From an uncultured Erysipelotrichaceae bacterium (GTDB lineage: Bacteria > Bacillota_I > Bacilli_A > Erysipelotrichales > Erysipelotrichaceae): DNA of 32,000 nucleotides. A program made the position numbers and the translations under genes. The DNA is taken from positions 1,110,001 to 1,142,000 of the forward strand of contig OW818653.1 in assembly GCA_942492995.1 (NCBI GenBank), written 5' to 3'. The notes under the pieces are model-generated. The model saw only the letters and a program-made list of their open reading frames with translations. It was not told the DNA's origin and did not search any database. Shown here piece by piece: positions 7,817-28,534 of the stretch; position 1 is the stretch's first letter; every line of letters begins with the position of its first letter.

Positions 7817-7817
7817 A

Positions 7818-9811: not shown

Positions 9812-9838
9812 TATTTCTTAAGAAAGGTTTTAATAATC

Positions 9839-11521: not shown

Positions 11522-11536
11522 TTTTTACACTTTTTT
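11512..11536. terminator. Weak AT-rich bidirectional hairpin terminator overlapping two convergent stop codons
   Basis: aaaagtgta (11512-11520) pairs with tacactttt (11526-11534) around the loop atttt, with T/A runs on both sides. The stem has only two G:C pairs. Confidence 0.4.
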
Positions 11537-13010
11537 AAACTCTATTTTTAATTATCTTATTCTTAAACATTATTAGTATCGTCCAAACATCATTGAATTC
11601 TTTTTTTATGAATAAATATGAAAGTACTACATAGATTGCAAATCCAGTAAGTACTTGTAATCCAAGTAATGAGACTGAACCAAGATTTAATAACGAAACA
11701 GCTAATACGCCAGCCCCCATCGCAAATGATACGAGAGTTATTGGACTAATATCTTTAATCTGATCAATGTATCCATATCCAACAAACTCTTTCGAATAAT
11801 GTACATTAATTAGATATCCAATCTGTGCATTAAAGAACAATACCCATAATAATTCAATAATCGAAACACCATACCACAACGCTATTGAGATTGTTGTAAA
11901 TGCGACTATTTTCTTGAAAATCTCTAATCTTAAATACAGATCCGTTCGTCCAATGACTGTTAAGATATTTAGATTCACTTTATGTAGTGGAATCATTAAC
12001 CCATTAATTGCGAGAATTTGCATAATTGGTATCATACCCAACCATTGTTCATTAAATACAACTTTGACGATAGATTCAGATGTTGCGGCTAAACCAATCA
12101 AGATTGGATAGATAATAAAGATCGATAATTTTAAGATTCTTCGACTTGTCTCTAACATTGATTCTTTTTGGTTTTGAAGTTTACTTAATACAGGAAATGA
12201 AACTTTTTGAATCGCATCCGTCAATGTTTGCGCAGCCCCATCACGAATCTTAAGTGCATTACTATAATACCCAAGTGCTGAGACAGAGAACAAAGCGCCC
12301 ATAATCAAATTGAATATATTCTCATAAACTGTATGGATTAAACCAGATAACATTAATTTCCAAGAATATACAATCGCCTCATTTAAGAATTGACGATCGA
12401 TTTTACCTTTTAAATCTAAATGATAGATTTGCGTTAGGAGAATTGTTTGAATTAATTGAAATGAAACATTGTAAATTACTAAACTCCATACCCCAAAATT
12501 AAACAAACTTACTGTAACTGCGATAATACCCGATACAATTGCCGCAACTAACATACTCATTGTTTGACCACGGAATTGTAGATCACGCGTCAACATTGCC
12601 TTATGTACAGATCCATACGCATTAAAGATAATTGCGGATGAACTAACCACAAGTAACATTTGTGTAGATGGTTCATTTAAATAATCTGAAATCCAAGGTG
12701 AACCTAACACAAAGATTGTCACAATTATAAACGCAAAAATCATATTTGCGACAAACAATGAAAACGCATCATTTTCTTCCAACGTTTGTTTACGAATTAG
12801 AAATAATGTTAATCCATTTTCGATTAGATAATTCGCAACACTCACAAAAGCCATCACAAGCGCTACTAAACCAAATGCTTCTGGCCAGAGTAATCGAGCT
12901 AATATGATTTGTGTTAATATTCGTATTATTTGAAACGCAAAAGAACCACCAGAACTCCACATCATCCCATTGATTGCTTTGCTTTTTATGTTTATATTTG
13001 TTTCACTCAT
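11535..13010 (-). CDS. wzx: Wzx-type polysaccharide flippase (MOP/PST superfamily)
   Basis: 491 aa with about 12-14 TM helices. The N-terminus KSKAINGMMWSSGGSFAFQIIRILTQIILARLLWPEAFGLVALVMAF is the classic Polysacc_synt/RfbX-type signature. Confidence 0.8.
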   Translation of the reverse strand: MSETNINIKSKAINGMMWSSGGSFAFQIIRILTQIILARLLWPEAFGLVALVMAFVSVANYLIENGLTLFLIRKQTLEENDAFSLFVANMIFAFIIVTIFVLGSPWISDYLNEPSTQMLLVVSSSAIIFNAYGSVHKAMLTRDLQFRGQTMSMLVAAIVSGIIAVTVSLFNFGVWSLVIYNVSFQLIQTILLTQIYHLDLKGKIDRQFLNEAIVYSWKLMLSGLIHTVYENIFNLIMGALFSVSALGYYSNALKIRDGAAQTLTDAIQKVSFPVLSKLQNQKESMLETSRRILKLSIFIIYPILIGLAATSESIVKVVFNEQWLGMIPIMQILAINGLMIPLHKVNLNILTVIGRTDLYLRLEIFKKIVAFTTISIALWYGVSIIELLWVLFFNAQIGYLINVHYSKEFVGYGYIDQIKDISPITLVSFAMGAGVLAVSLLNLGSVSLLGLQVLTGFAIYVVLSYLFIKKEFNDVWTILIMFKNKIIKNRV

Positions 13011-13095
13011 CTATATTAGAATACCCACTATTCTTATAAAAGTCTATTTATTTTTCGTATTAAGAAAGAATAAAAACTAAATAATATATATCCCA

Positions 13096-14673
13096 TTAAT
13101 TTGGTTCATACACATAGAAATAATCAAATTCAACTCTATCTAACTGATATGACTCTAGTTTAATAATAAAATCTGTATTCGACTTATTCACAATATAATA
13201 GGCATTACGATCAATTATTTCAGGCATGCCAAAATTATACTGTTTGTATCCATTTTCATATTTTCCTAAATTATAATCAAACGGTGATATTTGAGCACTA
13301 AGTAAAAAGTAGATATGGCCTTGGTAATTACTATCAATATTACTTTCTGTATATACAAGTTTATTTTCAGTGTTATTTACTTCGACGTATTCTATCTCTT
13401 CAGTAAATAGATTTGAGAATAAGGTTTGAGGATAAATATCATATTTGTATTCAAAATAGTAATACTTCGCAAACCCAATAAAGTTCATAATATATAAGAA
13501 TATTAATAGAATATGTAATGATTTAATAACCCATTGTGATTTAACATAATGTTTTATAAGTGTTTCAGATGCGTATACACCAATAACAAGTAATACCAAA
13601 ATTGAATAGAATATACCATTCATTTTATTCGTATTGAGTTGTTCCTCAAGCATAATTCCCATAACGAACACTGAAAACGCAAAGAACCAGATTACTACAA
13701 TCGGTGAATAACATCTCGATTTAATACTTCTAAATAGTTCTATCAATCCATAAAATATACCAATTAATACAAATGGGATTGATATTCTATACATCGTATA
13801 AAATTGACTAAACGTATTATATGTAAGTTGATCATACATAAATACACTTCTCGTAATAAGTTTAAAATTCTCAATTATTTTAGAGAACGTAAATCCTGAA
13901 CCTCTGAAATTGGTTAATTTAGGGAATGTAATGCCAAAGATAAGCAAACTATTCATATTGAGTGAATTTACTATAACCATTAGAATTAATGGAAGTGCTA
14001 ATAATACGAGTGGAATAACAAAGTATAAAACATATTTATATTGGATTGATTTTGTCCAAATCATATAAATAAGAATTAATAAAAGAAATATAGGCATTAC
14101 AACATAACTTAGTGCATAGGTATATAAAATTAATCCTGAGAAAAGACCAGCGATGATATAGTAATTCTTACTCTTCTCACTTATCATTTTATGCACAAAA
14201 TATAGTACAATCGATGACATACCCATCATCAAATTACAGTCCAATCCAAATCGAGATTGCATAATAAAATATGGAAGTACTGTAAATAGGAATGAAAACA
14301 AGATTCCATAATATTTTGAATTAAGTATTTCTGTAACAGTTTCATAACCAACAAAGAATGTAAGAGTTGATAGTATAATTCCTGGCAATCGAATTGAATA
14401 AATAGATAATCCAGATAATTTAATAAGAATCATAGACATATAGGCATATAACGCACTTTGCCCAGCCCCAAAATTAATCAAATAGACAGGATATGAATTC
14501 AAATAACGATCAACTCCAAAATTAGCTAAAGAAAAAGCATCATACGCCATTCCAACTTCATCTACATGCATTCCAAATGGAACTTCATTTAGATTAAACA
14601 ATCGAGTAATTAAAAAGCCAATAAACAATGTACACATTATTAAAGTCATATTCGATTTTATTAATTTTTTCAT
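13096..14673 (-). CDS. GT39/ArnT/PMT-like GT-C membrane glycosyltransferase
   Basis: 525 aa and polytopic. The first extracytoplasmic loop FGMHVDEVGMAYDAFSLANFGVDRY carries the D-E motif typical of the ArnT/PMT_2 family. GGGGA RBS upstream. Confidence 0.7.
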   Translation of the reverse strand: MKKLIKSNMTLIMCTLFIGFLITRLFNLNEVPFGMHVDEVGMAYDAFSLANFGVDRYLNSYPVYLINFGAGQSALYAYMSMILIKLSGLSIYSIRLPGIILSTLTFFVGYETVTEILNSKYYGILFSFLFTVLPYFIMQSRFGLDCNLMMGMSSIVLYFVHKMISEKSKNYYIIAGLFSGLILYTYALSYVVMPIFLLLILIYMIWTKSIQYKYVLYFVIPLVLLALPLILMVIVNSLNMNSLLIFGITFPKLTNFRGSGFTFSKIIENFKLITRSVFMYDQLTYNTFSQFYTMYRISIPFVLIGIFYGLIELFRSIKSRCYSPIVVIWFFAFSVFVMGIMLEEQLNTNKMNGIFYSILVLLVIGVYASETLIKHYVKSQWVIKSLHILLIFLYIMNFIGFAKYYYFEYKYDIYPQTLFSNLFTEEIEYVEVNNTENKLVYTESNIDSNYQGHIYFLLSAQISPFDYNLGKYENGYKQYNFGMPEIIDRNAYYIVNKSNTDFIIKLESYQLDRVEFDYFYVYEPN

Positions 14674-14799
14674 TTAAACAAATCCCCTATTTTGTTAAAC
14701 ATATTCATAAAAATACTCTTACGTATTAGTTGAATTTACATATTAAAGAATATACTAATAAGTATGATTTAGTATATATTACATGATAATACTTTATAT

Positions 14800-15897
14800 T
14801 TATTTAAGAATTTCTTTTAGTATATTTGTAATTAAACAAATTGATTCATAATCTAACTCGCCATACATCGGTAAACAAATTACTTGATTGGAAATAGTTC
14901 TAGATAGTGGCAAATCAGCTTGATAGATATCTCTATAACAAGCATAATCCGTAACTAATGGATAAAAATATTTCTTCGCATTTATTCCTTTTTCTTTTAA
15001 CGTATTAAAAACTTCATCTCGTGAGATTGTTTTATGATTAATTAGAATTGGAAAATATGAAAAGTTATACTGCGTATTTTGATGATAGATTGGTAATGTG
15101 ATTGTATCAATCTCGTTTAACAACGTTATATATGCATTCGCATTATTACAACGATCCGAAATCTCTTTTTCCAAGAGTGGTAAATTACTTAAGCCCATCG
15201 CAGCTTGGAATTCATTCATTTTTAAATTTGAGCCAATATATGTTATATCTTCAGATGTTTCCATCCCGTAATACTTTATTAATTCTAATTTTTTAGTTAA
15301 TGCACTATCACGATAGGTAAGTAATCCACCTTCAATCGTATTAAATACCTTCGTCGCATTCATACTAAACATCGACACATCCCCAAAATTACCAATCCCA
15401 ATATTATTGTGCTTAACTCCAAATACATGGGCCGCATCATATATAAGTTTCAAATTGTATTTGTGTGCAAGTTTCTCAAACACTTCCACATCACATACAT
15501 TGCCTAAGATATGAACTGGCATTATCGCAACTGTTTTATCCGTTATCTTCTTTTCAACTTCTACTGGATCTAATGTAAAATCATCTTCTTTTATATCCGC
15601 GAATACAGGCGTACAACCTTGTCGTACAATCGCATGGGTTGTGGAAGGAAATGTAAACGCAGTCGTGATTATTTCTCCTTTTAATTGATACGCTTCTAAA
15701 ATAGCTTCAAGTGCTAAATGTCCATTCACAAATAAAGACGCATTTTCAACTTCAAGAAGCTCTTTAAGTTTAGTCTCTAATTGTTCATGTTTAGAACCTT
15801 TACTCGTTAATTGATGTGTATCCCAAATCGATTCTATCTCTTTTACATAATCTTCAAACTTCGGTAATAAAGACTTTGTGACATTGATTTTTTTCAT
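14800..15897 (-). CDS. DegT/DnrJ/EryC1/StrS-family PLP-dependent sugar aminotransferase
   Basis: The track ORF extends to 15915. The ATG at 15897 (MKKINVTKSLLPKFEDY) follows GGAGA at the right distance. It shows the family pattern ...FVNGHLALEAIL...TFPSTTHAI...DAAHVFG...SMFSMNATKVFNTIEGG, with the Schiff-base lysine in NATK. Confidence 0.85.
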   Translation of the reverse strand: MKKINVTKSLLPKFEDYVKEIESIWDTHQLTSKGSKHEQLETKLKELLEVENASLFVNGHLALEAILEAYQLKGEIITTAFTFPSTTHAIVRQGCTPVFADIKEDDFTLDPVEVEKKITDKTVAIMPVHILGNVCDVEVFEKLAHKYNLKLIYDAAHVFGVKHNNIGIGNFGDVSMFSMNATKVFNTIEGGLLTYRDSALTKKLELIKYYGMETSEDITYIGSNLKMNEFQAAMGLSNLPLLEKEISDRCNNANAYITLLNEIDTITLPIYHQNTQYNFSYFPILINHKTISRDEVFNTLKEKGINAKKYFYPLVTDYACYRDIYQADLPLSRTISNQVICLPMYGELDYESICLITNILKEILK

Positions 15898-15905
15898 AAT
15901 TTCTC

Positions 15906-16862
15906 CTAAACCCAATACTTAAATCTAAGAATTCGTAAATAATCGAATACGTTCGGATAGTTTTTCTCAATCCATAAAGCGAGTTGACTATATTTATTTA
16001 GATTTATAAATGGTTTAAACTTTTCTTGATTTAAGGTTTGAAACTCTCTTTTACGTGTAATTATTAAATATTCTAAATAATTTAATGTTTCATTCATTAT
16101 AGTATCATATTGAAAATTCGTATATTGATTAAACTCTTTAAAAAATTCATATTCAGATTGGTAATGATGAATAAGTTTCTGAGTATTCATACGTACACGA
16201 TGAGTCCATGATAAATCAACCCCAACACGATAGACAGACATTACATCAGGAATATAAACGATATTCCCTATTAATGAGAAGTACATTAGTCGTGTCACAT
16301 CGCCAACTTTGAAATGTTTAAAGAATTCAGGCATTACTATTGGTTCATTTCTAAACATAAATGAGTGAAATGGAAACACACTACCTCGATGCTTGATAAT
16401 TTCTTCCATAGTTAAGATACGTTTCTCAGTACCGATTCTCCAAACTTTACGTGCAATTGGATTACGTGTATTTTGAATGTAACAAGCATGTCCAACACAT
16501 ACACATTTTTCATCGGATTCAAGAATTTCAACCTGCTTTTGAAGTTTATATGGATCAATCCAATAATCGTCACCTTCACATATCGCTAAATACTTGCCAT
16601 TCGCTCTTAAACGATTTATCTCAAACACACTCTTGCCTTGACTGTATTGATTAATACTTTGATATATTGGTTTAACTAAGTTTGGATATTGTGTCTCATA
16701 TTGTTTAATGATTCGTTGTGTATCATCTGTTGAAGCATCATCATGGATACATATCTCAAATGCGAAATCCGTTTTTTGCATAATAAAACCATCCAATGCC
16801 TTTTTAATAAAGCTTGAATGATTAAATGTATGACATAAAATACTTACAACGATTTTTTCCAT
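15906..16862 (-). CDS. Family 2 glycosyltransferase
   Basis: MEKIVVSILCHTFNHSSFIKKALDGFIMQKTDFAFEICIHDDASTDDT...CEGDDYW motifs. Confidence 0.8.
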   Translation of the reverse strand: MEKIVVSILCHTFNHSSFIKKALDGFIMQKTDFAFEICIHDDASTDDTQRIIKQYETQYPNLVKPIYQSINQYSQGKSVFEINRLRANGKYLAICEGDDYWIDPYKLQKQVEILESDEKCVCVGHACYIQNTRNPIARKVWRIGTEKRILTMEEIIKHRGSVFPFHSFMFRNEPIVMPEFFKHFKVGDVTRLMYFSLIGNIVYIPDVMSVYRVGVDLSWTHRVRMNTQKLIHHYQSEYEFFKEFNQYTNFQYDTIMNETLNYLEYLIITRKREFQTLNQEKFKPFINLNKYSQLALWIEKNYPNVFDYLRILRFKYWV

Positions 16863-16873
16863 TTAACTCACTT

Positions 16874-17710
16874 TTATTTTTGATTTAAATTTAATAATAC
16901 TCTTAATTCTGAAGAACTCATCATTGTATGTTCATTAACATCGATTAATCGGTGAATTCGCTTAATTAAATCGATATTACTCGCTAAAACAGTGCGATTA
17001 TCATCGTACCAGATATTATCTTCTAATCCAATTCTTACACCATATCCTAATGATATTGCACATTGATTTGAGGTGAACTGTGAATTTCCAATACCACCAA
17101 TTGAGAAGATTGCGTTCTTTGGAAGTTCATTAATTAATGTAGCAAGATGTAATAGATTAAGTTGAGCACCTGCTATATTTCCAAGAATTAAATTTACGTA
17201 AATAGGTGTTTCTATATTTAACTTTTTTATCAGATAATTCAAATAATTAATCATACCCAAATCGAATACTTCAAATTCAGGCATAATTCCATTTTTTAAC
17301 ATTGTATTGATTAAGTCCATAATCATTTCAGGTGAATTATGACTAACATCTTTAGAGAAGTTTATTGAACCTAAGGTTAAACTAGCCATATCTGGTTTCA
17401 GATCACCCGTTAATTGTAATACCTCTGAACGCGCTTCAAACGTATTAACAGATCTACCTGTTGTCGATACAACAATCACAATATCTTTATTGTATGATCG
17501 AATACCACGAATTATTTCTGCATAGATTTCTTTTTTATAGGTAGGTATGCCATCTTCATCTCGTGCATGTAAATGTACCATTGTAATACCTAAATCAATC
17601 GCATTCTTAACTTCTTGGACAATCTCTGAAACGCTGATTGGAACATGTGGCGTTGTCGATTTCATTGGCAACATCCCTGTAGGTGTAAAGTTTATGATAA
17701 TTTTAGACAT
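16874..17710 (-). CDS. BKACE (beta-keto acid cleavage enzyme, former DUF849) family protein
   Basis: The track ORF extends to 17755. The ATG at 17710 (MSKIIINFTPTGMLPMKSTTPHVP) follows AAGGGG. It shows ITMVHLHARDEDGIPT and RIGLEDNIWYD, motifs characteristic of the 3-keto-5-aminohexanoate cleavage enzyme family. Confidence 0.8.
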   Translation of the reverse strand: MSKIIINFTPTGMLPMKSTTPHVPISVSEIVQEVKNAIDLGITMVHLHARDEDGIPTYKKEIYAEIIRGIRSYNKDIVIVVSTTGRSVNTFEARSEVLQLTGDLKPDMASLTLGSINFSKDVSHNSPEMIMDLINTMLKNGIMPEFEVFDLGMINYLNYLIKKLNIETPIYVNLILGNIAGAQLNLLHLATLINELPKNAIFSIGGIGNSQFTSNQCAISLGYGVRIGLEDNIWYDDNRTVLASNIDLIKRIHRLIDVNEHTMMSSSELRVLLNLNQK

Positions 17711-17808
17711 ATAACCCCTTTTATGGCTAAATGAGCATTTTCTATAGTTTAACATTTTCTTTAATGCTTGTGTTTTGTAATGTATTATATATTTATTAGG
17801 AAACCTCC

Positions 17809-18825
17809 ATGAAAATTAATCTACTAATAACAAGTGTTGGAAGACGTAACTACATAGTTCAATTCTTTAAGGAATACATGCATGATGATGACACGATACA
17901 TGTATCAAATAGTAATATAACCAGTGCTTTTAATGAAGCACATTTTAGTGTTGTGACACCATTAATAAAAGATGAAACGTACATTGACTTTCTGGTAGAT
18001 TATTGTGTAAAAAATAGAATAAATGCGCTTTTATCACTTTTCGATTTAGATATCTACGTACTATCAAAACATAAGTCTAAATTTGATGCGATAAATGTTA
18101 CATTACTATTCTCTGACGAGAAGATTATTGAGATCTGCAATGATAAATGGATGACATATAAATTTCTAATTGACCATGGATTTAAAACTCCACTAACATA
18201 TCTTAATTATGATGAAGTTATACAATCACTCGATAAACAAATTATCAAATTTCCAATTATGATTAAACCACGATATGGAACTGGTTCAATTGGATTATAT
18301 GAAGCGAATGATCTTGAAGATTTAGTGTTTTATACAAAAAAAGCGCATCAATTAATTAAAAGAACATACATTAATGAATTTAATCCGATTGATTCACAAT
18401 TATTAATCTATCAAGAAAAAATAGTTGGGACTGAATACAATCTAGATGTGATTAATGACCTTAACTGTGACTATCAAACTACAATCGTTAAACAAAAACT
18501 TGAGATACGAGCTGGAGAAACGGATAAGGCGATTATTATAGATAATGATAAATTAAAAAATGTTGGATTAAATCTATCTCAACATTTAAAACATCGATTA
18601 AATTGTGATTGTGACCTCATTCTAGATATAAACAATACTGCATATATTATTGATTTAAATCCACGTTTTGGAGGTGGTTATCCATTTAGTCATTTAGCAG
18701 GTGTTAACTTACCACATGCAATTCTTTCTTGGTTAAAGAATGAAATAATCGATTATGAATGGAAAGTAGTTAAACCAAATTTAGTTATACAAAAAGAAAT
18801 TATAATGAAGATATTAAAAGATTAA
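17809..18825 (+). CDS. ATP-grasp ligase (stand-alone), opposite orientation to the surrounding operon
   Basis: MKINLLITSVGRRNYIVQFFKE..., then FPIMIKPRYGTGSIGL, and a C-terminal IIDLNPRFGGGYPFSHLAGVNLP. This is the typical pre-ATP-grasp plus ATP-grasp organisation seen in glycan loci. Confidence 0.8.
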   Translation: MKINLLITSVGRRNYIVQFFKEYMHDDDTIHVSNSNITSAFNEAHFSVVTPLIKDETYIDFLVDYCVKNRINALLSLFDLDIYVLSKHKSKFDAINVTLLFSDEKIIEICNDKWMTYKFLIDHGFKTPLTYLNYDEVIQSLDKQIIKFPIMIKPRYGTGSIGLYEANDLEDLVFYTKKAHQLIKRTYINEFNPIDSQLLIYQEKIVGTEYNLDVINDLNCDYQTTIVKQKLEIRAGETDKAIIIDNDKLKNVGLNLSQHLKHRLNCDCDLILDINNTAYIIDLNPRFGGGYPFSHLAGVNLPHAILSWLKNEIIDYEWKVVKPNLVIQKEIIMKILKD

Positions 18826-19472
18826 TTTTTAAAACGAATTCCTATTGAATGGCTTGGATTTCCTACATTCTTTGTGTTTTCTTCCACATCTCTTATCACA
18901 ACAGAACCTGCCCCAATAAGGGCTTTTTGTTTGATGTGTATGTTATTAGAAATCGTTGAATTTAAACCGATATAAACTTGATCATCAATTGTACATACTC
19001 CACCAATGGTTGTGGAAGCAGTAATAATGACATGACTACCCATTTTAAGTTCATGTCCAATATACACTTTTTGACGAATAATATTATTATCTTGAAGGAC
19101 AGTTTCTGGTCCGATATAACACAATTCAAAGATTATATTGTTTACACCCATTTTTACATCATTAAACACAACACTGCGTTTACTTATATAGTTTCTAAGA
19201 TTATAACCTTTGGCTTTTGCCCTATAAAAAAGCGTTGAATCTTGATTCAAAGAAGCATCTAAAACAACCATATCAAATTCACTCGGAGGATAAATCATTT
19301 CAACATCTTCAAAGGCAATTTGTGGTAGATCACAAAACTTACCCGATTCATCTAAATAATCACGATCAACACAAAATGCGACAATCACAAAATCATCATG
19401 ATCAATCGCGTCAAAATACAACATCTTAGATAATAATCGTCTACCATAGACTACGATACCTTTAGATTTCAT
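18822..19472 (-). CDS. NeuD/PglD-family sugar N/O-acyltransferase (left-handed beta-helix)
   Basis: The N-terminal Rossmann-like part is MKSKGIVVYGRRLLSKMLYFDAI..VIVAFCVD. The C-terminal hexapeptide repeats are IGHELKMGSHVIITASTTIGGVCTIDDQVYIGLNSTISNNIHIKQKALIGAGSVVIRDV. GGAGA RBS present. The start overlaps the upstream gene by 11 nt. Confidence 0.8.
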   Translation of the reverse strand: MKSKGIVVYGRRLLSKMLYFDAIDHDDFVIVAFCVDRDYLDESGKFCDLPQIAFEDVEMIYPPSEFDMVVLDASLNQDSTLFYRAKAKGYNLRNYISKRSVVFNDVKMGVNNIIFELCYIGPETVLQDNNIIRQKVYIGHELKMGSHVIITASTTIGGVCTIDDQVYIGLNSTISNNIHIKQKALIGAGSVVIRDVEENTKNVGNPSHSIGIRFKN

Positions 19473-21507
19473 TGTCGTTCTCCATGTAATATTTTGTTAG
19501 TGAATCAATTGTTTGGATTAATGTAACCTTTGGCTCCCAATTAAGATCATTATATATTTTTGATGAGTCTAGTCGATATCTTAAATTAATCGATTCACTT
19601 ACAATTTCAATTCTAGATTTCGAATGACCTTTTATACGATTTACAGAATCGATTGCGAGATTTGCGAAATCGATTATTGAGTATGATTCTTTTGAGCTCA
19701 AGTTATAACATTCTTCCCATTTATCGGGTTGAGCAATAAGTTTAGATAATGCGTCACTAACATCTTCAATATCGATTAAATCAAACACTTGTTCACCACC
19801 AACAATCTTAATTGGCTCATTACGTAGAGCTTGTTTAATAAACTTTGATAAGACAAACACATCAACCAATCCTTTTGAATCTCCTAATACTGTTCCAAGT
19901 CGAATTGATGTAGTATTTAAATCTGGATTTGCGTATTTAATCGTCTTTAGTAATAATTCTGTCGAAACTTTAGCTTGGCCATAAAATGTCTTAGGTTTCA
20001 ATAAAGATGATTCACTCCAGATTGGATCTGCATAATTTCCATATACACTTCGTGATGATAAATTAATTATGTTTTTAACTTTAATTAGTGATGCCTTAGC
20101 GAATAATTCTGATGTGAACTCCAAACTACGTGTAATTTGTTCATCACCTAGATGAGGACGTGCAAACCCTAGATGGATTAAACAATCAATCTCCTTCCAA
20201 GGTATTGAATTGGTTGATAAATCGTTTAGCGTATACATATTTTGAATCGTATTATTGAATACTTTTCTCGCATTATCCATATTCGTTGTGAGTATATCAA
20301 CCATATAACCCTGATTTAATAGCTTATTTACTAAGTTATAACCAATAAAACCCGTAGAACCTGTTACACAAATACGCTTAATCGTATTCAACTTATTCTT
20401 CTCCCAGAATTTATTCTGATTGAAAACGATACAATCATTGTTAGAAATATAGTAATCCGTCAATGATCGATAAACTAACCCATTAGACTGTGTAGGATAT
20501 CTACTATCCACTCCAATATCATACTTATAATAAGATAATATCAGATTTCGAACTTCATCAAATCCTAGCCAAGCACGTGCAGATGTAGATCCACTCATAC
20601 GTCCATTCATTTCTATCCCATAAAATGTATTGTTCGCTTCTCTTAGCTGTAAATTAAACATTCCACGCCAACCTTCTTTTACGATAGCTGTTGTGTATTC
20701 TTTAGCGATTCTACTTAACTCTTCATTTATAAATGGTTCTGCCTTTTCACATCGTCCTAATACCATTAAACTCTTTGATGTGAATATCTCATCAAATTGA
20801 CCGTCTTCATGAATTAAGACTTGTGCTGCATATTGAGCATCATCAGGTAGATGAAAGAAGAATGGAATACCACATTGAATATCTGATTCAAAGCGATTGA
20901 GTTTAATCATATTATCGTTATTAAAACCAATCAATTTTTGTAAGATAATATTCTCTATTTTAGAATTAAGTAAGGCCAAAAGATGATTATCATGCATTAA
21001 TACACGTATTCCAAGCGATCCAAATCCATCTCTTGGTTTCGCAATAATTGGATACTCAACGTGATTTGCCCATTCAAATACATCACCATTTTCCCCATTG
21101 AGAATATATGATTGTGCAAAGGGTAAATGATATTTTTTCGCAAATGACATACTTAATGCTTTATCATTCATAATCTCAATCGAAGATATACTTCCTTTAG
21201 AAATCATATTTTGAAACTCTGGATGCTTATTAAAAAACTTAGCTAGTATCATCACGTCTTCATCACGCCCTGGTAAAACTAAATTAGGTACTTCTTTCAT
21301 TAAAACATTAATAAAAAATGATTCAAACTCAGTCGAATTACTATTAACTGATTTATACAATCGATCACATCTAAAAACGCGAGGATTTTCCGAAATAGTA
21401 TTTATACCCACTATTTCAACTTTCTCTCTTCGACCTTCCAGAGCATCTAGTACATTCTGACCGAGTAAACTTCCAACACTTAGTATTAGTATTTTAAATT
21501 TATTCAT
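19462..21507 (-). CDS. Fusion protein: N-terminal ATP-grasp ligase plus C-terminal extended-SDR NAD(P)-dependent epimerase/dehydratase/reductase
   Basis: The track ORF extends to 21564. The ATG at 21507 (MNKFKILILSVGSLLGQN) sits 1 nt after the upstream stop. The ATP-grasp part shows YPIIAKPRDGFGSLGI and GIEMNGRMSGSTS. The SDR part shows ICVTGSTGFIGYNLVNKLL, SSRSVYG and the catalytic YGQAK. Confidence 0.8.
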   Translation of the reverse strand: MNKFKILILSVGSLLGQNVLDALEGRREKVEIVGINTISENPRVFRCDRLYKSVNSNSTEFESFFINVLMKEVPNLVLPGRDEDVMILAKFFNKHPEFQNMISKGSISSIEIMNDKALSMSFAKKYHLPFAQSYILNGENGDVFEWANHVEYPIIAKPRDGFGSLGIRVLMHDNHLLALLNSKIENIILQKLIGFNNDNMIKLNRFESDIQCGIPFFFHLPDDAQYAAQVLIHEDGQFDEIFTSKSLMVLGRCEKAEPFINEELSRIAKEYTTAIVKEGWRGMFNLQLREANNTFYGIEMNGRMSGSTSARAWLGFDEVRNLILSYYKYDIGVDSRYPTQSNGLVYRSLTDYYISNNDCIVFNQNKFWEKNKLNTIKRICVTGSTGFIGYNLVNKLLNQGYMVDILTTNMDNARKVFNNTIQNMYTLNDLSTNSIPWKEIDCLIHLGFARPHLGDEQITRSLEFTSELFAKASLIKVKNIINLSSRSVYGNYADPIWSESSLLKPKTFYGQAKVSTELLLKTIKYANPDLNTTSIRLGTVLGDSKGLVDVFVLSKFIKQALRNEPIKIVGGEQVFDLIDIEDVSDALSKLIAQPDKWEECYNLSSKESYSIIDFANLAIDSVNRIKGHSKSRIEIVSESINLRYRLDSSKIYNDLNWEPKVTLIQTIDSLTKYYMENDNEI

Positions 21508-21508
21508 A

Positions 21509-23230
21509 TTATTGTTCTTCTTTCCAAAATAGTTTAAACGTTGGGGATGTGGATGAGAAAACACCCTCGCTTATCGATACTTCATTATCAATATTTATAA
21601 TCACTTCAATTAAATATGGCTCTATTGTATTTTGAGCTATATTTATTGCGTTTTCCAATTCTTCTAGTGTCCGTACACACATCGCTTCTATATTGAAACT
21701 TTTCGCATAGTGTGTCCAAGATACATTCGGTAAACGTGATATCTGATTCCGTGTTAGTTCTTCTTCTTTATTCAATCTTAATTCGATTCTTCCATACGAA
21801 CCATTATTTATTACGATAAACTTAGTATTACGATGATACCTTTGTGCTACAGCTAATTCATTCCCATGCATTAACATACATCCATCCCCAGTTAATATCC
21901 ATGTCGCAATCGAGTTATCGACAAATGAAGCGCCTATACCAGCCGCAATTGCCCACCCCATTGGCGCATTCTTTGCGGCAGTGAAGAATGTATTATAGTT
22001 AATCACATCCCAATATTTACTTCCATAGATACGATGATCTCCAGAATCCAAGAAAAAGTTAGATGTTTTATTAATCAATCCATTCATTAAAAACAAACAA
22101 TTTTCCATACTTAATTTAGTACTCTTATCATGTACTTCATATTTAATTGGCTTATAAACATATTTAATAAACCAAGATTTCTCATTATCCGAAATCACAT
22201 TCAACTTCTGTAATGAATCAATGAAATGATTGATTGAACTTTGTATGTGGATAATAGGATGTTCCAAAATACCATCCCTTTGCGCTCGATTGCTAATAGA
22301 GTAAATATTCCTATACTTTTTGAATAGTTTATTACTCCATGCCATCGTATTTCGCTCATTTAATTCTGTCCCAAAAAAGTAAATATCTTCAATTTGTTCA
22401 TTTGAGACCAATTGAATCGCAGATTCATTTCCTGCATATCCATATACTCCACAGAATAATTCACTTGGAATAAGTGCTTGTGTATTCTTTGCGCCTATTG
22501 TACACACCATAGGAATTGCATGTTTTATACAAAAATTGATTATAGAATTTATATCATCGAGATTATTTAAATCTTCACCTAATATAAATATTGCTTTATG
22601 AAAGTTCATTTTATAACGTTCTAAATTTAAATCTTTTTTATCATAGTGTTTAACAAGTTTATTTATCACTAAATTTTCTAGAATTTGTGTCTTAAAGACA
22701 TCACAATGAACATTCAGATGTAAAGGATAATTATTATAATTTCTAAATTCTGAATGGAACGTTTCTAATGTATAAAATAATTCATTAGAATCTGTTGGGA
22801 TACATTGATTATTAATAAGCAATTTCATTATTTCAGAGGATTTACAACCATCTTGGTTTGATGTTTGAAATCCAAGTTTATCTTTAATTGATAGTGGCGC
22901 ATCGCCTGTTAAATATATAACAGAACTATGATCAATCATTGCGGTAGATACTGCAGTTATAAGATTTGTCAGACCTGGTCCATTGATTGTCGCAACTAAG
23001 GATATTTGTTTAGATTTCCTAAAGTATCCATCTGCCATAAAACCAGCCCCTTCTTCATGTGCTGAGACGACTAATTTGAAACGTTTATCCTTCGCGACAG
23101 CTAAAATAAAATGTTCTATGTGAGCTCCAGGTATTGTAAATATCGTACGAATCCCTAGGTCATAGAACAAATTTAGACAATAGTGTGTAAAATCATAGGT
23201 TAAACTTGATACATTTTCTGAATTATACAC
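21509..23230 (-). CDS. Thiamine-diphosphate-dependent enzyme of the acetolactate-synthase/YerE-like class
   Basis: 573 aa with a GTG start at 23230, preceded by GGAGA at a 6-nt spacing. The N-terminal Pyr domain reads VSAHEEGAGFMADGY...INGPGLTNLITAVSTA. The C-terminal ThDP motif is GDG, then 24 residues, then NN (LTGDGCMLMHGNELAVAQRYHRNTKFIVINNGSYG). Confidence 0.8.
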   Translation of the reverse strand: MYNSENVSSLTYDFTHYCLNLFYDLGIRTIFTIPGAHIEHFILAVAKDKRFKLVVSAHEEGAGFMADGYFRKSKQISLVATINGPGLTNLITAVSTAMIDHSSVIYLTGDAPLSIKDKLGFQTSNQDGCKSSEIMKLLINNQCIPTDSNELFYTLETFHSEFRNYNNYPLHLNVHCDVFKTQILENLVINKLVKHYDKKDLNLERYKMNFHKAIFILGEDLNNLDDINSIINFCIKHAIPMVCTIGAKNTQALIPSELFCGVYGYAGNESAIQLVSNEQIEDIYFFGTELNERNTMAWSNKLFKKYRNIYSISNRAQRDGILEHPIIHIQSSINHFIDSLQKLNVISDNEKSWFIKYVYKPIKYEVHDKSTKLSMENCLFLMNGLINKTSNFFLDSGDHRIYGSKYWDVINYNTFFTAAKNAPMGWAIAAGIGASFVDNSIATWILTGDGCMLMHGNELAVAQRYHRNTKFIVINNGSYGRIELRLNKEEELTRNQISRLPNVSWTHYAKSFNIEAMCVRTLEELENAINIAQNTIEPYLIEVIINIDNEVSISEGVFSSTSPTFKLFWKEEQ

Positions 23231-23368
23231 ATTATTTCTCCGTTTAAAACGAGCTGTTTTCTAATGATTTTAGTTTAACAAAATCAACTCTAAATGTATA
23301 TAAATACCCATGGTAGTGCATACATTATATAGATAAGAATAAAAAACTGTTTTAACCCTTTTAAAGTC

Positions 23369-23396
23369 TTGTAATATTCACTTAATACACTATAAT
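23369..23396 (+). promoter_or_regulatory. Putative sigma-A promoter of the regulator/aminotransferase operon
   Basis: TTGTAA (23369-23374), a 16-nt spacer, then TATAAT (23391-23396), followed by the AAGAGG RBS and the ATG at 23421. Confidence 0.5.
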
Positions 23397-23420
23397 TAGA
23401 CTAATTTAAAGAGGCAAAAT

Positions 23421-23903
23421 ATGGAAAAACTACTAAAACTATTAAAAGATAATGCACGATTATCGACAAAAGAATTATCAGTGATGTTAAATCGAAGTGA
23501 AACTGATGTCTCAAACCAAATTTCTGAACTCGAAAATCAAGGAATTATTAAAGGATATAAAACACTTATCAACGAACAAAAAGTGAATGCTGGAGTTACC
23601 GCATTGATTGAGTTAAAAGTTACACCAAAGAAAGAATATGGTTTCCAAGACATCGCCGACCGTGTAATGCAATTCCCTGAAGTGGAAAGTGTTTATCTAA
23701 TGGCGGGAGACTATGATTTAGCTGTTTTTGTGAAAGGTGAAACGATTCAAGATGTCGCAATGTTTGTGGCTAAACGATTATCACCACTTGATTCAGTTAT
23801 TTCTACCGCAACTCATTTTGTCTTACAAAAATATAAACAAGATGGTGTTATTCTTGATGATTTAAAAAATAATGACATAAGAAGTCAAATGGTAAAAGAA
23901 TGA
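23421..23903 (+). CDS. Lrp/AsnC-family transcriptional regulator
   Basis: MEKLLKLLKDNARLSTKELSVMLNRSETDVSNQISELENQGIIKGYKTLIN forms the HTH, followed by an AsnC-type ligand domain. Its stop overlaps the next start (ATGA at 23900-23903). The pair resembles Bacillus subtilis alaR-alaT (yugG-yugH). Confidence 0.85.
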   Translation: MEKLLKLLKDNARLSTKELSVMLNRSETDVSNQISELENQGIIKGYKTLINEQKVNAGVTALIELKVTPKKEYGFQDIADRVMQFPEVESVYLMAGDYDLAVFVKGETIQDVAMFVAKRLSPLDSVISTATHFVLQKYKQDGVILDDLKNNDIRSQMVKE

Positions 23904-25063
23904 CGAAGCCTTTGAAAGTAAACAAATACCTCGCTACCATACCAGATGCGATAATTACGAAATATTTAGAAATTGGCGCAAATCCTGAAGTAATTTCGTT
24001 AGGCATCGGTGAACCTGATTTCTCAACACCTTACCACATACGAGAAGCTGCGATTGAAGCACTATCATTAGGTAAAACGTTTTATACTCCCGCAAAAGGC
24101 TTATTAGGTTTACGTAAAGAAATTGCGAACACAATGAAACGTAAAACTCGTTTAACCTATGATCCAAATACTGAAATACTTGTGACAATTGGCGCAAGTG
24201 AAGCGATTGAAGTCGCAATTATTACATTGCTCAATGTTGGAGATGAAGTTATCGTCGTTTCTCCAAGTTATTTAAGTTATGAACCTATTGTTAAAATGTG
24301 TGGTGGCGTTGTCGTGAATGTTGAGACAAAAGAAGCAGATGGATTTAAACTCACAAAAGAAGCACTACTCGAAAAATTAAGCGATAAAACACGTTTAATT
24401 CTATTAAACTATCCTAATAACCCGACTGGCGCAATTATGAATAAAGCAGAATTAAGTGAGATTGCGTCTGTTCTTAAAGATCGTGATTTACACGTCTTAT
24501 CAGATGAAATTTACAGTGAACTAAGTTATACAAAAAAACACTTCTCAATTGCAGAATGTGAAGGTATGTATGATAAAACACTTGTTATCAATGGATTCTC
24601 AAAAACATACGCAATGACAGGTTGGCGTTTGGGTTATGTTTGTGCTCCAAAGGAAGTAATCGATACTTTAGCGAAATATCATCAATACGCTATTCTCTGT
24701 GCACCAACCATATCTCAGTTCGCTGGTATTGAAGCACTTAAAAATGGAGATGATACGATTGTACATATGCGTGATGAGTATGATATGCGTAGACGATTTG
24801 TCGTCGATCGCTTAAATTCAATTGGTTTACCAACATCTAATCCACTTGGCGCATTCTATGTTTTTATAAATATCCAATGGACAAAAATGAGTTCAACCGA
24901 ATTTTGTGATAAACTTCTAGAGAGTAAAAAAGTCGCACTTATACCAGGTAATGCGTTTGGTAAGAGTGGCGAAGGGTTTGTACGCCTTTCATATTCATAT
25001 TCTATTCAACATATCAAGGAAGCTCTTGATCGAATTGAAGCATTTATCAAAGAACTAGTTTAA
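23900..25063 (+). CDS. Class I/II PLP-dependent aminotransferase (AlaT/AspC-like)
   Basis: LGIGEPDFSTPYHIREAAIEAL, NYPNNPTGA, and NGFSKTYAMTGWRLGY, which carries the PLP lysine. Confidence 0.85.
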   Translation: MTKPLKVNKYLATIPDAIITKYLEIGANPEVISLGIGEPDFSTPYHIREAAIEALSLGKTFYTPAKGLLGLRKEIANTMKRKTRLTYDPNTEILVTIGASEAIEVAIITLLNVGDEVIVVSPSYLSYEPIVKMCGGVVVNVETKEADGFKLTKEALLEKLSDKTRLILLNYPNNPTGAIMNKAELSEIASVLKDRDLHVLSDEIYSELSYTKKHFSIAECEGMYDKTLVINGFSKTYAMTGWRLGYVCAPKEVIDTLAKYHQYAILCAPTISQFAGIEALKNGDDTIVHMRDEYDMRRRFVVDRLNSIGLPTSNPLGAFYVFINIQWTKMSSTEFCDKLLESKKVALIPGNAFGKSGEGFVRLSYSYSIQHIKEALDRIEAFIKELV

Positions 25064-25925: not shown

Positions 25926-27773
25926 ATGGAATTTACACGACATAAACTAATCTCAATCACATTATTTTCAATAATGTATCTTTTCTATTCAAGCCTCTTC
26001 TTTAGTTTAAGCAAATATACAATATTACTAAATACAGTACTATTTTTAATTGTAATTATTCCTGCAGTTGCGCTTAAAGAGAAACTATCAACGATTTGGT
26101 TAAGTACATTCCTTGTATTCTTATCCATTCTTTTCTCTGTACAATCTGTATATTATCGAGCGTTTAATCAATTTGGATTAATAAGTACTTTAGTTAGTAT
26201 GAAGAATGATATAGGGTTCTATTCGGATAGTGTTATTGAGTTCATTCAATTGAAAGATATTATATTATTACTTCTTCCATTAGTATTTATACTAGTTACT
26301 CATTATGCAAAAAAGAAAATAAAAAATATTCACTATAAGAATATTATTCGTAAAACACTTATCTATTTAGCTGGAACAACATTAGTCTTAACAAGCTTAT
26401 TCTTCGGATTACTTAACCAATCAAAGAATGAATATGATATATTCAGTTATTTTAAGACAGATCACTTTATATTTCTAACGATACCGAATACAAATCAATT
26501 TACGAATCGATTTGGTTTAGTTGGATTATTCTTTCGCGATGTTTCAAATACATATTTAGGATCGATGAATATAAGTAACAAGAAAGTCGCAAATGATATT
26601 GATCAAATACTATCGACAAATACTGAAATAGAGTTAAATTCTTACTCAGGGATCTATGAAGGTAAAAATTTATTATTAATCGAAGCAGAATCACTCAATA
26701 ACTTAGCGATTGACCCTGTTTTAACGCCAACACTTTATCGTTTGAAAACGAATGGTATCAATGTAGAAGGATACAATTCACCATTATTATTTGGTTCAAC
26801 AAGTGATTCAGAGTTTATGGCTAATACAAGTTTATATCCATCAAATAATGGATATATCACATACCATCGTTATGCGTCTAATTTATATCCAAGTACCTTA
26901 GCAAAACAATTTCAATTATCCGATTACATTACTACTGCCTTTCATAATAGTGCTGGCGATTTCTATAATCGTACGAACATGTTAAAACAACTGGGCTATG
27001 ATTTTATGGATAGTAATATCCTTGGACTTGGTGCAGGTGAATTGGATAGTAGAACATTGAATGTCGCAAAATGGATATTCTTTGAACAAGAAAAATACTT
27101 ATCATTTTGGATTACATATAGTGGTCATCAACCCTATACCGTAGAGAGTCTAGATCCAACACTTGTTCAATACTACAATCAAGTCGTTAGTCTATATCCA
27201 AATCTCCCATCTGCAGAACAAGTTTATTTAGCTAAAATCATGGACTTTGACCGAAGCTTAGAGTATCTGATTTATGATTTTGAACATAACAATAAACTCA
27301 ATGATTTAGTAATTATTATCTACGGAGATCATCATCCAAAAGAAATATTCTCAGAGAAGACAGAGTTCTATGATATCTGTGAGTCAAAGGGATATAACAC
27401 TACAAATTGTTTTGAGACACCATTCATTATCTGGGACAATACGAACATTTCAGAGACCATACAAAAAGTATCTAATCCATTAGATATTGCCCCAACGATT
27501 TATGATTTATTTAACTTAGATTATGATAAATCGACGATTGTCGGAAGAAGTGTCTTCGATCAATCCTATGAAGGTTATTATTTTGATGAATATGGCACAA
27601 TCAAAACTGATAATTTCGCTTATAACTCGATTGATCATTCAATTATTAGTTTCAATGAAACGAGTGATGATTCTAATCTTATTACAGCACAAGCTTTGTA
27701 TCAGAAGATGCAAATCCTTCGTAAATTAGTTGATATTAATTACTTCAAAGAATTAGAATCTGAAATAGAATAA
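25926..27773 (+). CDS. LtaS-family (sulfatase-fold) polyglycerolphosphate synthase / glycerol-phosphate transferase
   Basis: Five N-terminal TM helices. The extracellular domain shows LLLIEAESLNN, FGSTSDSEFMANTSLYP (the nucleophile-Thr motif, compare GKTSDAEF of S. aureus LtaS), TTAFHNS and ITYSGHQPY. Confidence 0.8.
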   Translation: MEFTRHKLISITLFSIMYLFYSSLFFSLSKYTILLNTVLFLIVIIPAVALKEKLSTIWLSTFLVFLSILFSVQSVYYRAFNQFGLISTLVSMKNDIGFYSDSVIEFIQLKDIILLLLPLVFILVTHYAKKKIKNIHYKNIIRKTLIYLAGTTLVLTSLFFGLLNQSKNEYDIFSYFKTDHFIFLTIPNTNQFTNRFGLVGLFFRDVSNTYLGSMNISNKKVANDIDQILSTNTEIELNSYSGIYEGKNLLLIEAESLNNLAIDPVLTPTLYRLKTNGINVEGYNSPLLFGSTSDSEFMANTSLYPSNNGYITYHRYASNLYPSTLAKQFQLSDYITTAFHNSAGDFYNRTNMLKQLGYDFMDSNILGLGAGELDSRTLNVAKWIFFEQEKYLSFWITYSGHQPYTVESLDPTLVQYYNQVVSLYPNLPSAEQVYLAKIMDFDRSLEYLIYDFEHNNKLNDLVIIIYGDHHPKEIFSEKTEFYDICESKGYNTTNCFETPFIIWDNTNISETIQKVSNPLDIAPTIYDLFNLDYDKSTIVGRSVFDQSYEGYYFDEYGTIKTDNFAYNSIDHSIISFNETSDDSNLITAQALYQKMQILRKLVDINYFKELESEIE

Positions 27774-28489: not shown

Positions 28490-28534
28490 ATTTTACCTAT
28501 TTTGGATATTTTAACATATTAATTTTATCGTGGT

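Follow-up and report, generated by a model that had tools for sequence, protein, structure and literature searches.

A modular seven-gene cassette, possibly for an unusually N-acylated amino sugar, in a wall-glycopolymer locus of an uncultured Erysipelotrichaceae bacterium

Described relatives and a proposed pathway

N-acyl groups on amino sugars largely set the antigenic identity of O-antigens, capsules and S-layer, spore and flagellar glycans, and the genes behind most exotic acyl groups are not known. In Bacillus anthracis, the anthrose operon antABCD encodes an enoyl-CoA hydratase (AntA), a glycosyltransferase (GT; AntB), an aminotransferase (AntC) and a left-handed beta-helix (LbH) acyltransferase (AntD), which use dTDP-4-keto-6-deoxyglucose made by rml genes elsewhere. 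Here we analysed a block of seven genes (positions 14800-23230) in a 32,000-nt stretch of contig OW818653.1 from an uncultured Erysipelotrichaceae bacterium; the whole stretch is referred to as the window. The block encodes an aminotransferase of the DegT family, a GT of family GT2 and a NeuD-like LbH acyltransferase, together with an acetolactate synthase-like (ALS-like) thiamine diphosphate (ThDP) enzyme, an ATP-grasp ligase fused to an extended short-chain dehydrogenase/reductase (SDR), a second ATP-grasp ligase and a BKACE (beta-keto acid cleavage enzyme, DUF849).

Other described systems resemble parts of this set. ArnA, ArnB, ArnC and ArnT make up the lipid A 4-aminoarabinose pathway, yersiniose, a branched-chain sugar of Yersinia pseudotuberculosis, involves an ALS-like ThDP enzyme and a reductase (YerE/YerF), and Kce is the 3-keto-5-aminohexanoate cleavage enzyme (PDB 2y7d). 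Both ATP-grasp proteins of the block fall in the PRK12767 subgroup, for which PurT, biotin carboxylase and RizA are the nearest characterised folds; an SDR fusion or a coupling to ThDP and DegT genes was not found described for this subgroup. Anthrose itself is an N-acylated viosamine (PMC9614988). In Shewanella oneidensis, sfmABCDE encodes a NeuB-like protein, a 581-aa thiamine pyrophosphate (TPP) enzyme, an SDR resembling FabG, a methyltransferase and an ATP-grasp protein, and is needed for a flagellin glycan whose nonulosonic acid has a basic group and bears a nitrogen-free C9-C11 H16-20 O7 unit (PMC3765264). BKACE enzymes convert a beta-keto acid and acetyl-CoA to an acyl-CoA and acetoacetate (PMC6365646). 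A survey of the BKACE family is cited in that paper and in bioRxiv 10.1101/2023.02.15.528638, and these two papers describe no glycan role for BKACE. Literature searches on ATP-grasp enzymes in the acylation of O-antigen amino sugars and on the anthrose operon yielded little.

From gene content, motifs, folds and gene linkage, we infer that the block may be a modular cassette that turns a nucleoside diphosphate (NDP)-activated 4-amino-4,6-dideoxyhexose into a sugar with unusual, possibly peptide-like N-acyl side chains for wall-glycan assembly; we put the probability of this reading at about 0.45. The DegT enzyme would aminate an NDP-4-keto-6-deoxyhexose supplied by RmlA/RmlB-type enzymes encoded outside the window. 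The ThDP enzyme would condense 2-oxo acids to a free acetolactate-type alpha-hydroxy-beta-keto acid, whose carboxylate the ATP-grasp half of the fusion would activate as an acyl phosphate and join to the sugar-nucleotide amine through an amide bond. The SDR half would then reduce the beta-keto group to give a dihydroxyacyl amide, a sequence that parallels the logic of free-standing operons of ThDP, ATP-grasp and FabG-like reductase genes. BKACE would form a special acyl-CoA and acetoacetate from a beta-keto acid together with acetyl-CoA, the NeuD-like transferase would attach this acyl group either to the sugar or to its side chain, and the second ATP-grasp enzyme would extend it by a further amide bond. 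Finally, the soluble GT2 would add the completed sugar to a glycan carried on a lipid, to be exported and fixed to the wall by Wzx, the GT-C enzymes and the LCP ligase encoded nearby.

Likened by enzyme type, the DegT, GT2, NeuD-like and BKACE genes, and the L163-type clusters described below (loci are numbered with the prefix L), match the anthrose pattern of a Firmicute set with a GT, a DegT enzyme, an LbH N-acyltransferase and a dedicated acyl-CoA-preparing enzyme. The two differ in that BKACE stands here in place of enoyl-CoA hydratase, which is absent from the window, and in that anthrose is made without a ThDP enzyme, an ATP-grasp ligase or a fused SDR. The sfm genes, compared by gene description, were the only published case found in which a TPP enzyme, an SDR and an ATP-grasp protein are tied to a glycan. 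Their product, an amino-bearing sugar with an oxygen-rich, nitrogen-free, acid-like moiety, fits a hydroxy acid that is made first and then amide-linked. Unlike the cassette, however, sfmABCDE has a separate FabG-like SDR, a NeuB-like enzyme and a methyltransferase, and its target is a nonulosonic acid on flagellin.

The initial annotation of the window had called this enzyme mix unprecedented. That was overstated, because the block divides into three recurring modules and because L163-L165 hold a near-identical set (BKACE, two ATP-grasp genes, LbH, DegT, a 318-aa GT2, RmlA/RmlB and WbqC, with no ThDP gene), while sfmABCDE already joins a TPP enzyme, an SDR and an ATP-grasp protein to a flagellin glycan. 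What stood is that no characterised glycan pathway was found to which the cassette is orthologous.

Three recurring modules at a variable chromosomal site

By its gene content, the block reads as a mosaic of three modules, each of which recurs elsewhere. The first of these modules consists of the DegT and soluble GT2 genes and travels with Wzx and the PMT_2 GT-C gene, the second comprises the ThDP enzyme and the ATP-grasp::SDR fusion, and the third joins the NeuD-like and BKACE genes, here with the second ATP-grasp gene and in other phyla as BKACE, acyltransferase and ATP-grasp. Cassette gene order and coupling are kept at 55-94% protein identity in independent contigs (L001, L002/L003, L089-L091), and this recurrence indicates that the block is more than a chance assembly. 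All seven genes occupy the same site in the window and in L001 (70% ThDP identity), six in L090/L091, where the second ATP-grasp gene is absent and NeuD-like and BKACE are kept, and four (ThDP-fusion-GT2-DegT) in L002/L003 (55% ThDP identity). L089 begins like L002/L003, and its contig ends after the GT2 gene. In L004 (ThDP 38%, fusion 47%), the ThDP-fusion pair and a GT2-Wzx-DegT group lie 8 kb apart within one glycan cluster. The four-, six- and seven-gene versions thus suggest that NeuD-like and BKACE form a two-gene unit and that the opposite-strand ATP-grasp gene is a further add-on.

On five contigs (L001, L002, L089, L090 and L091), every variant of the cassette is flanked by the AsnC regulator and aspartate-type aminotransferase genes found at 23421-25063 of the window, and this pair marks a fixed chromosomal site with varying content. 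On the opposite side of the site, the order of LCP, Wzx and PMT_2 genes is rearranged among relatives. Judged from the homologues retrieved, the full seven-gene mix is apparently confined to a narrow lineage and the sub-modules are widespread.

All domain assignments were made with Pfam and NCBIfam profiles and judged against family cut-offs. The DegT protein matches PF01041 over residues 22-364 (292.1 bits vs a cut-off of 19.8) and reaches no equivalog for a named enzyme (DesI, PseC, WecE or ArnB), the best being DesI at 240 bits vs 650. Among solved structures it is nearest to DesI (2po3, 157 bits), with PseC and perosamine synthases next, and it is most like the C4 aminotransferases of NDP-4-keto-6-deoxyhexoses. 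The GT2 protein (Glycos_transf_2, 62 bits) has no hydrophobic segment, and its nearest named models are TuaG and EpsE, far under their cut-offs. We therefore rejected it as a polyprenyl-phosphate transferase of the ArnC/GtrB type, which the missing membrane segment and the resemblance to TuaG and EpsE speak against. GT2 homologues accompany DegT and the fusion in L002-L004, L058, L090, L091, L146, L147, L163 and 18 loci from GTDB genomes, so that the proposed membership of the embedded GT2 and DegT genes in the cassette held even in distant taxa. Orthologue-level Wzx hits lie beside GT2-DegT in L001-L004, L090 and L091, and the PMT_2 GT-C gene is co-located with the cassette in L001-L003 and L091. 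In relatives, RmlA/RmlB genes stand directly upstream, and the first module thereby points to dTDP-4-amino-4,6-dideoxyhexose.

The ATP-grasp::SDR fusion and the proposed acyl-supply enzymes

The N-terminal half of the fusion matches CPSase_L_D2/ATP-grasp profiles and the C-terminal half matches Epimerase (PF01370, 92.9 bits). In alignment A1, K116, K157 and both E299 and R303 of the E299-x-N-x-R303 motif are invariant and N301 is nearly so. The model of the ATP-grasp domain (pLDDT 93.9) has 2pn1 as its best Foldseek match (E 2e-18), followed by biotin carboxylase, PurT, PurK and RizA. 2pn1 is a structural-genomics PRK12767 protein annotated as 'carbamoyl-phosphate-synthase-like' ATP-grasp, of unknown function; the other matches are carboxylate-amine or carboxylate-activating ligases. 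With the fold, the conserved lysines and the E-x-N-x-R motif of carboxylate-amine ligases all present, the N-terminal half is, as modelled, a competent-looking ATP-grasp domain. It belongs to a small family: when 1.84 billion representatives were searched exhaustively, 1006 reached E<=1e-3 and 140 reached E<=1e-30, and most relatives are free-standing proteins of 365-380 aa. P0188, P0212 and P0236 (736-747 aa) each showed two matched stretches and are apparently tandem ATP-grasp fusions.

The SDR half carries TGxxGxxG, SSRSVYG and YGQAK motifs as in extended SDRs of the NDP-sugar family. In the full-length model, its top 50 fold matches are all nucleotide-sugar enzymes (TM 0.72-0.83), among them GalE, UXS, MoeE5, RmlB, WbmG and ArnA, and its best sequence relatives are MoeE5 (a UDP-glucuronic acid (UDP-GlcA) 4-epimerase) and UDP-GlcA decarboxylases. 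All fusion members have SSRSVYG or SSQSVYG, whereas the RmlB-like neighbours in L060 and L163 have STDEVYG. T-D-E are the residues of 4,6-dehydratases and T-S-E those of UXS/ArnA. A role as 4,6-dehydratase was rejected since T-D-E is absent, and the glutamate of UXS/ArnA is lacking as well. A role as acyl-phosphate or thioester reductase was likewise rejected, as no such fold occurs among the top 50 matches. The view that the SDR, the DegT enzyme and a PglD-like protein form the classical trio for N-acylated amino-deoxy sugars consequently did not survive, as the SDR is half of an ATP-grasp fusion with SSRSVYG rather than STDEVYG and, in relatives, a separate RmlB/RmlA pair lies upstream of DegT.

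When GTDB was scanned with an alignment of the fusion, 80 loci with 21-44% identity were retrieved, most of them from Bacteroidota, Halomonadaceae and Chlorobi, the best match being a 44%-identical metagenome-assembled genome of Sphaerochaetaceae. The fused form is present in 67 of the 80. A ThDP gene lies within 10 kb in none of the 78 loci outside the ThDP clade. Where upstream sequence was available, an orthologue-type DegT gene (>=150 bits) directly precedes the fusion on the same strand in 26 of 62 loci, and a GT2 homologue lies no more than 5 kb away in 18 of the GTDB loci. RmlA and/or RmlB occur within the fetched flanks of 10 loci, with the order RmlB-RmlA-DegT-fusion in five from Halomonadaceae; L015 and L021 have RmlA and no detectable RmlB. 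This Rml-DegT-fusion linkage suggests that the fusion acts after dTDP-4-amino-4,6-dideoxyhexose has been formed and speaks against the SDR half as supplier of the keto sugar. In L038 (Algoriphagus marincola, 1-16000), the DegT-fusion pair directly follows genes for NeuB, a PglD-like acyltransferase, an HpcH/HpaI aldolase-like protein and a second DegT enzyme. From this gene order, the fusion may decorate a nonulosonic acid pathway in some Bacteroidota.

The domain layout invites comparison with the Arn pathway, in which the SDR would oxidise or oxidatively decarboxylate a UDP-sugar or UDP-uronic acid at C4 and the DegT enzyme would aminate the product. ATP-driven N-acylation by the ATP-grasp half would then pull the equilibrium, or the uronic carboxylate would be amidated, and GT2, Wzx and the PMT_2 GT-C would serve as ArnC, ArnE/F and ArnT. 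Like ArnA, the fusion unites an acylating N-domain with a nucleotide-sugar SDR C-domain, the cassette has a DegT-family aminotransferase and a GT2 with a PMT_2-type GT-C next to it, MoeE5 and UDP-GlcA decarboxylases are the SDR's sequence relatives, and ArnA is among its fold matches. A UDP-glucose dehydrogenase family gene and an epimerase gene adjoin the ThDP-fusion pair in L007, a separate dehydratase is absent from the window, and L015 and L021 would also fit. However, ArnA is resembled in layout alone, as the N-domain is an ATP-grasp rather than a formyltransferase and SSRSVYG has neither the T-S-E of the decarboxylases nor the T-D-E of the dehydratases. A second C4 oxidase would be redundant in Halomonadaceae, where RmlB-RmlA precede DegT-fusion, and this linkage points to 6-deoxyhexoses. 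Furthermore, the DegT protein is nearer DesI (240 bits) than ArnB (137 bits), the GT2 of the cassette lacks the membrane segment present in the GtrB-like one (8813-9811), and the window has no UDP-glucose dehydrogenase. We regard an Arn-like route as unlikely.

The ThDP enzyme has well-supported N- and C-terminal domains (TPP_enzyme_N 93.8 bits, TPP_enzyme_C 87.4 bits), and its middle domain is divergent, with TPP_enzyme_M at 18.8 bits vs a cut-off of 30.4, so that a canonical FAD-binding middle domain was not found. It reaches no NCBIfam equivalog cut-off (best 144 bits vs 539) and is far under those of the ALS models (e.g. 130 vs 738). The best solved relatives are BbmA/CsmA (~105 bits), with acetohydroxyacid synthase (AHAS) at ~82 bits. 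All 10 family members compared share the cofactor-activating Glu59 (HEEGAG), an FQ motif like that of AHAS and TGDGC...NNG without change, and the N and C domains, the activating glutamate and the GDG...NN motif place the protein among ThDP enzymes of the ALS/AHAS-like type. The family is small, with only 13 clusters at >=52% identity.

A metagenome scan for the ATP-grasp domain, with a query alignment of 12 sequences, showed the ThDP gene directly upstream of the ATP-grasp gene in 21 of the 41 loci with enough upstream sequence. This linkage spans 29-100% ThDP identity, and a FabG-like or extended SDR adjoins the pair in 11 loci. Free-standing operons of ThDP, ATP-grasp and FabG-like reductase genes sit amid unrelated housekeeping genes in several phyla (L005, L087, L088, L100); no described function was found for them. 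The fused pair occurs without glycan genes in L006 (fusion identity ~41%), and in L007 (fusion 44%) it abuts MurJ-like, LicD, Wzy_C, epimerase and UDP-glucose-dehydrogenase-family genes. All relatives with at least 47% fusion identity, plus L007, lie inside or beside glycan loci, and only the more distant L006 lies apart from them. This pattern suggests that the ThDP/ATP-grasp/SDR trio is a self-contained chemical unit recruited into glycan loci.

An ALS-like ThDP gene translationally coupled to a nucleotide-sugar-type SDR within a glycan locus also recalls YerE/YerF, the precedent for a ThDP enzyme and a reductase in yersiniose synthesis, and the carboligase motifs Glu59 and FQ are kept. In such a scheme, the ThDP enzyme would add a pyruvate-derived two-carbon unit at the C4 keto group of the sugar, the SDR and DegT enzymes would process the side-chain ketone, and the ATP-grasp enzymes would acylate the amine. 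Gene linkage sets the two apart: the ThDP gene here is bound to an ATP-grasp gene and accompanies it outside sugar loci too, including the FabG-like operons, and DegT-fusion units do without a ThDP enzyme in 78 GTDB loci. C-branching of the YerE type, raised in the initial annotation as a precedent, is accordingly disfavoured, and we hold it to be improbable.

In the third module, the NeuD-like protein scores above the cut-off for Hexapep (30.2 bits) and Pfam calls no PglD_N domain; its solved relatives QdtC, VioB and PerB are sugar N-acetyltransferases. A NeuD-like homologue adjoins BKACE in L001, L090, L091, L147, L086 and L048. The second ATP-grasp protein has a PylC-like_N domain (80 bits) and ATP-grasp_3, passes the cut-off of NF009404 (324 vs 316), a family without known function, and has 2pn1 as a solved homologue. 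It is a distant paralogue of the fused ATP-grasp domain (hhalign probability 97.4%, 21% identity).

BKACE matches PF05853 over the full model (251 bits, 1-274 of 274). Aligned to Kce, it retains the fold over its full length and the HLH, PEFEV and GLED motifs, HLH and GLED presumably being the zinc-site positions if the residue roles of the Kce structure apply, and would be expected to catalyse the BKACE reaction. It differs from Kce in scoring below the equivalog NF052387 (229 vs 382 bits) and in context: no kam or kdd genes of lysine fermentation lie near it, the neighbours being glycan genes. Thousands of homologues at 56-63% identity are spread across phyla, and in every context read they lie beside an acyl-transfer enzyme. 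By these similarities, the window BKACE appears to belong to a large, highly conserved subgroup that adjoins acyltransferases. The partner is a GNAT protein in L161 (Flagellimonas, CP186325.1) and in L026, which also has a further ATP-grasp gene. L162 (Methylococcaceae) combines BKACE with a non-ribosomal peptide synthetase (NRPS) condensation domain, a carrier protein, an adenylating enzyme and an ornithine/diaminopimelate decarboxylase. The homologues in L161 and L162 (~60%) lie outside glycan loci. An ornithine/arginine decarboxylase gene was seen near BKACE in L086. Such varied partners suggest one conserved BKACE acyl-CoA product that may serve different acceptors.

L163-L165 share the order RmlA-RmlB-GT2-ATPgrasp_ST-ATP-grasp_4-DegT-WbqC-LbH, with BKACE in the same cluster ~8 kb from LbH; homologue scores against the window are 351 bits for BKACE, 351 for DegT, 238 for GT2 and 194 for LbH. 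BKACE is intact in the window, L090, L091, L147 and L163, and is frameshifted or truncated in L001 (10182-11104; 220 aa plus a fragment), L026 (2627-3503), L086 (12735-13677) and L048 (14788-15318). L001 is the closest relative with full synteny, yet BKACE is broken there, and assembly error and module decay are both possible. By analogy, the simplest reading is that BKACE would prepare an acyl-CoA for the neighbouring transferase, which would follow the anthrose logic with another acyl-CoA supplier. The recurrent extra ATP-grasp gene suggests that the acyl group carries an amine or carboxylate of its own (e.g. 3-aminobutyryl or succinyl).

Alternatively, the ThDP enzyme, ATP-grasp and SDR, perhaps with BKACE, the NeuD-like protein and the second ATP-grasp, could make a free N-acyl amino acid or dipeptide-like metabolite, the glycan location being incidental. 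The initial annotation had named travel of the ThDP, BKACE and ATP-grasp genes without glycan genes as a sign of an unrelated small-molecule pathway, and half of this was seen. ThDP and ATP-grasp genes (with or without the SDR) do so in the free-standing operons and in L006, as 30-50%-identical homologues only, and BKACE does so with GNAT in Flagellimonas and with the NRPS-type genes in Methylococcaceae; all three together outside a glycan locus were not seen among the loci examined. Within the block, spacings and overlaps of 1 to 11 nt bind these genes to GT2 and DegT, and neither an exporter nor a regulator belongs to the cassette itself. By fold, the fused SDR is of the nucleotide-sugar type, every relative at >=47% fusion identity as well as L007 (44%) lies in or next to a glycan locus, and NeuD-like, BKACE, DegT and GT2 homologues recur with RmlA/RmlB in L163-L165. 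A free metabolite as the product thus seems highly improbable.

Several points weigh against the proposed sugar N-acylation pathway itself. Its precursor is assumed, since neither a nucleotidyltransferase nor a 4,6-dehydratase is encoded in the window. A single aminotransferase stands against three enzymes of amide or acyl formation, and the pathway requires the acyl group itself to bring an amine or a carboxylate. For the ThDP enzyme, the product is a guess based only on the chemistry of its family, and a literature search yielded no identification of BbmA/CsmA, which carry no weight in the functional inference. The ThDP/ATP-grasp pair is not intrinsically a sugar module, as L006 and the free-standing operons lack glycan genes. 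For the SDR half, activity as an epimerase or as a C4 oxidase is an alternative, and the NeuD-like protein, aligned over the full length of TIGR03570 (NeuD/PglB/VioB), scores 136 bits vs a cut-off of 160.8.

A broader generalisation is possible but doubtful: the fusion would represent an undescribed CoA-independent bifunctional class that links a beta-keto acid by an amide bond to an NDP-amino sugar and then reduces it. A dedicated ThDP carboligase would supply the acid here, the DegT-coupled fusions of Bacteroidota, Halomonadaceae and Chlorobi would draw it from general metabolism, and BKACE with an acyltransferase and ATP-grasp would be a second widespread route to peptide-like glycan side chains. 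If this holds for the fusion, it would provide a general route to the hydroxyacyl amides found on many bacterial surface sugars.

Cassettes for N-acylated amino sugars are of a known kind; no description was found of modules in which a ThDP enzyme would feed an ATP-grasp::SDR ligase-reductase or BKACE would feed an acyltransferase with extension by ATP-grasp. The analysis provides three portable gene signatures, namely ThDP + ATP-grasp + SDR, DegT + ATP-grasp::SDR and BKACE + acyltransferase + ATP-grasp. These have many natural variants, and the four-, six- and seven-gene versions at one site resemble a natural knock-out series. Should the proposed pathway be correct, it would provide functions for a small ATP-grasp family that counts ~1000 of 1.8 billion representatives, for the BKACE subgroup, which is large and highly conserved, and for the unsolved Shewanella sfm flagellin modification, and would add ATP-driven, CoA-independent acylation to the glycan-engineering toolbox.

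Gene models and the surrounding locus

The open reading frame (ORF) listing has seven intact ORFs in the block, with the coordinates given in the initial annotation, and together with Pfam and NCBIfam it confirmed the tight packing, the junctions and the domains described there (Table 1). Six of the proteins (573, 681, 216, 338, 318 and 365 aa) are exact entries in a public protein collection, which indicates that independent gene callers picked identical starts. For BKACE, the longest ORF extends to 17755, and the start is most likely at 17710 (278 aa), given an AGGGG 5-6 nt upstream of it and a length of 278 aa for P0328, a homologue with 97% identity.

Between the end of the ThDP gene (21509) and the start of the fusion (21507) lies a spacer of 1 nt (21508). 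The fusion (end 19462) and the NeuD-like gene (start 19472) overlap by 11 nt (19462-19472). An 11-nt gap (16863-16873) separates BKACE (end 16874) from GT2 (start 16862), and an 8-nt gap (15898-15905) separates GT2 (end 15906) from DegT (start 15897). In addition, the ATP-grasp gene on the plus strand (17809-18825) runs towards the NeuD-like gene on the minus strand (18822-19472), and their ends share 4 nt (18822-18825), which had gone unremarked.

Table 1. Positions of the cassette genes and of neighbouring glycan genes in the window
Feature	Position	Strand	Assignment
ALS-like ThDP enzyme, 573 aa	21509..23230	-	TPP_enzyme_N and TPP_enzyme_C above cut-off
ATP-grasp::extended-SDR fusion, 681 aa	19462..21507	-	ligase ~1-372, SDR ~373-681
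NeuD/PglB/VioB-like left-handed beta-helix acyltransferase, 216 aa	18822..19472	-	Hexapep; TIGR03570 below cut-off
Second ATP-grasp ligase, 338 aa, PylC-like N domain	17809..18825	+	PylC-like_N, ATP-grasp_3, NF009404
BKACE/DUF849 beta-keto acid cleavage enzyme, 278 aa	16874..17710 (start most likely)	-	PF05853
Soluble GT2 glycosyltransferase, 318 aa	15906..16862	-	Glycos_transf_2
DegT-family sugar aminotransferase, 365 aa	14800..15897	-	PF01041
PMT_2-type GT-C membrane glycosyltransferase, 525 aa	13096..14673	-	PMT_2 31.7 bits; multiple hydrophobic segments
Wzx/MOP flippase, 491 aa	11535..13010	-	Polysacc_synt_3 245 bits
Polytopic protein, 560 aa	9839-11521		
GtrB-like membrane GT2	8813-9811		membrane segment present
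Two GT2s	6821-8765		
Wzy/O-antigen-ligase-like protein	5214-6797		
LCP ligase	2728-5160		
YfhO-family GT-C gene, off the left end of the window	1-1990	-	PF09586 151 bits

The glycan flanks hold an LCP ligase, a Wzy/O-antigen-ligase-like protein, four further GT2s, Wzx and three GT-C-type proteins (the YfhO-type, 560-aa and PMT_2 proteins). The window is a wall-glycopolymer locus of a monoderm bacterium, and its flanking genes bear out the earlier placement of a glycan-tailoring cassette in such a locus. The G+C content is ~31%. No nucleotidyltransferase, 4,6-dehydratase or UDP-glucose dehydrogenase gene was found within the 32 kb, and across the whole window neither Rfam (at its gathering threshold) nor a search for tandem repeats gave any match. 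The ORF-free stretch 1-2141 was considered as an RNA gene and rejected, as it is the YfhO gene leaving the window. A promoter and terminator scan of 11000-24000 was uninformative, with 83 promoter-like sites vs 94.5 expected in shuffles and 6 terminator-like sites vs 4.0 expected.

On the plus strand, 2142-2768 encodes a protein of 208 aa that has a hydrophobic segment at its N terminus and matches nothing in Pfam; it overlaps the start of the LCP gene (2728), with which it is probably co-translated. The right flank encodes the AsnC regulator, the aspartate-type aminotransferase, GDPD, an LtaS-like sulfatase-fold protein, YaaA and a 2-oxoacid:ferredoxin oxidoreductase. YaaA and the two-subunit oxidoreductase (27740-31601 of the window) also neighbour the cassette in L002 (4366-8210). 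They are probably a housekeeping flank, though the oxidoreductase handles the 2-oxo acid class presumed for the ThDP enzyme.

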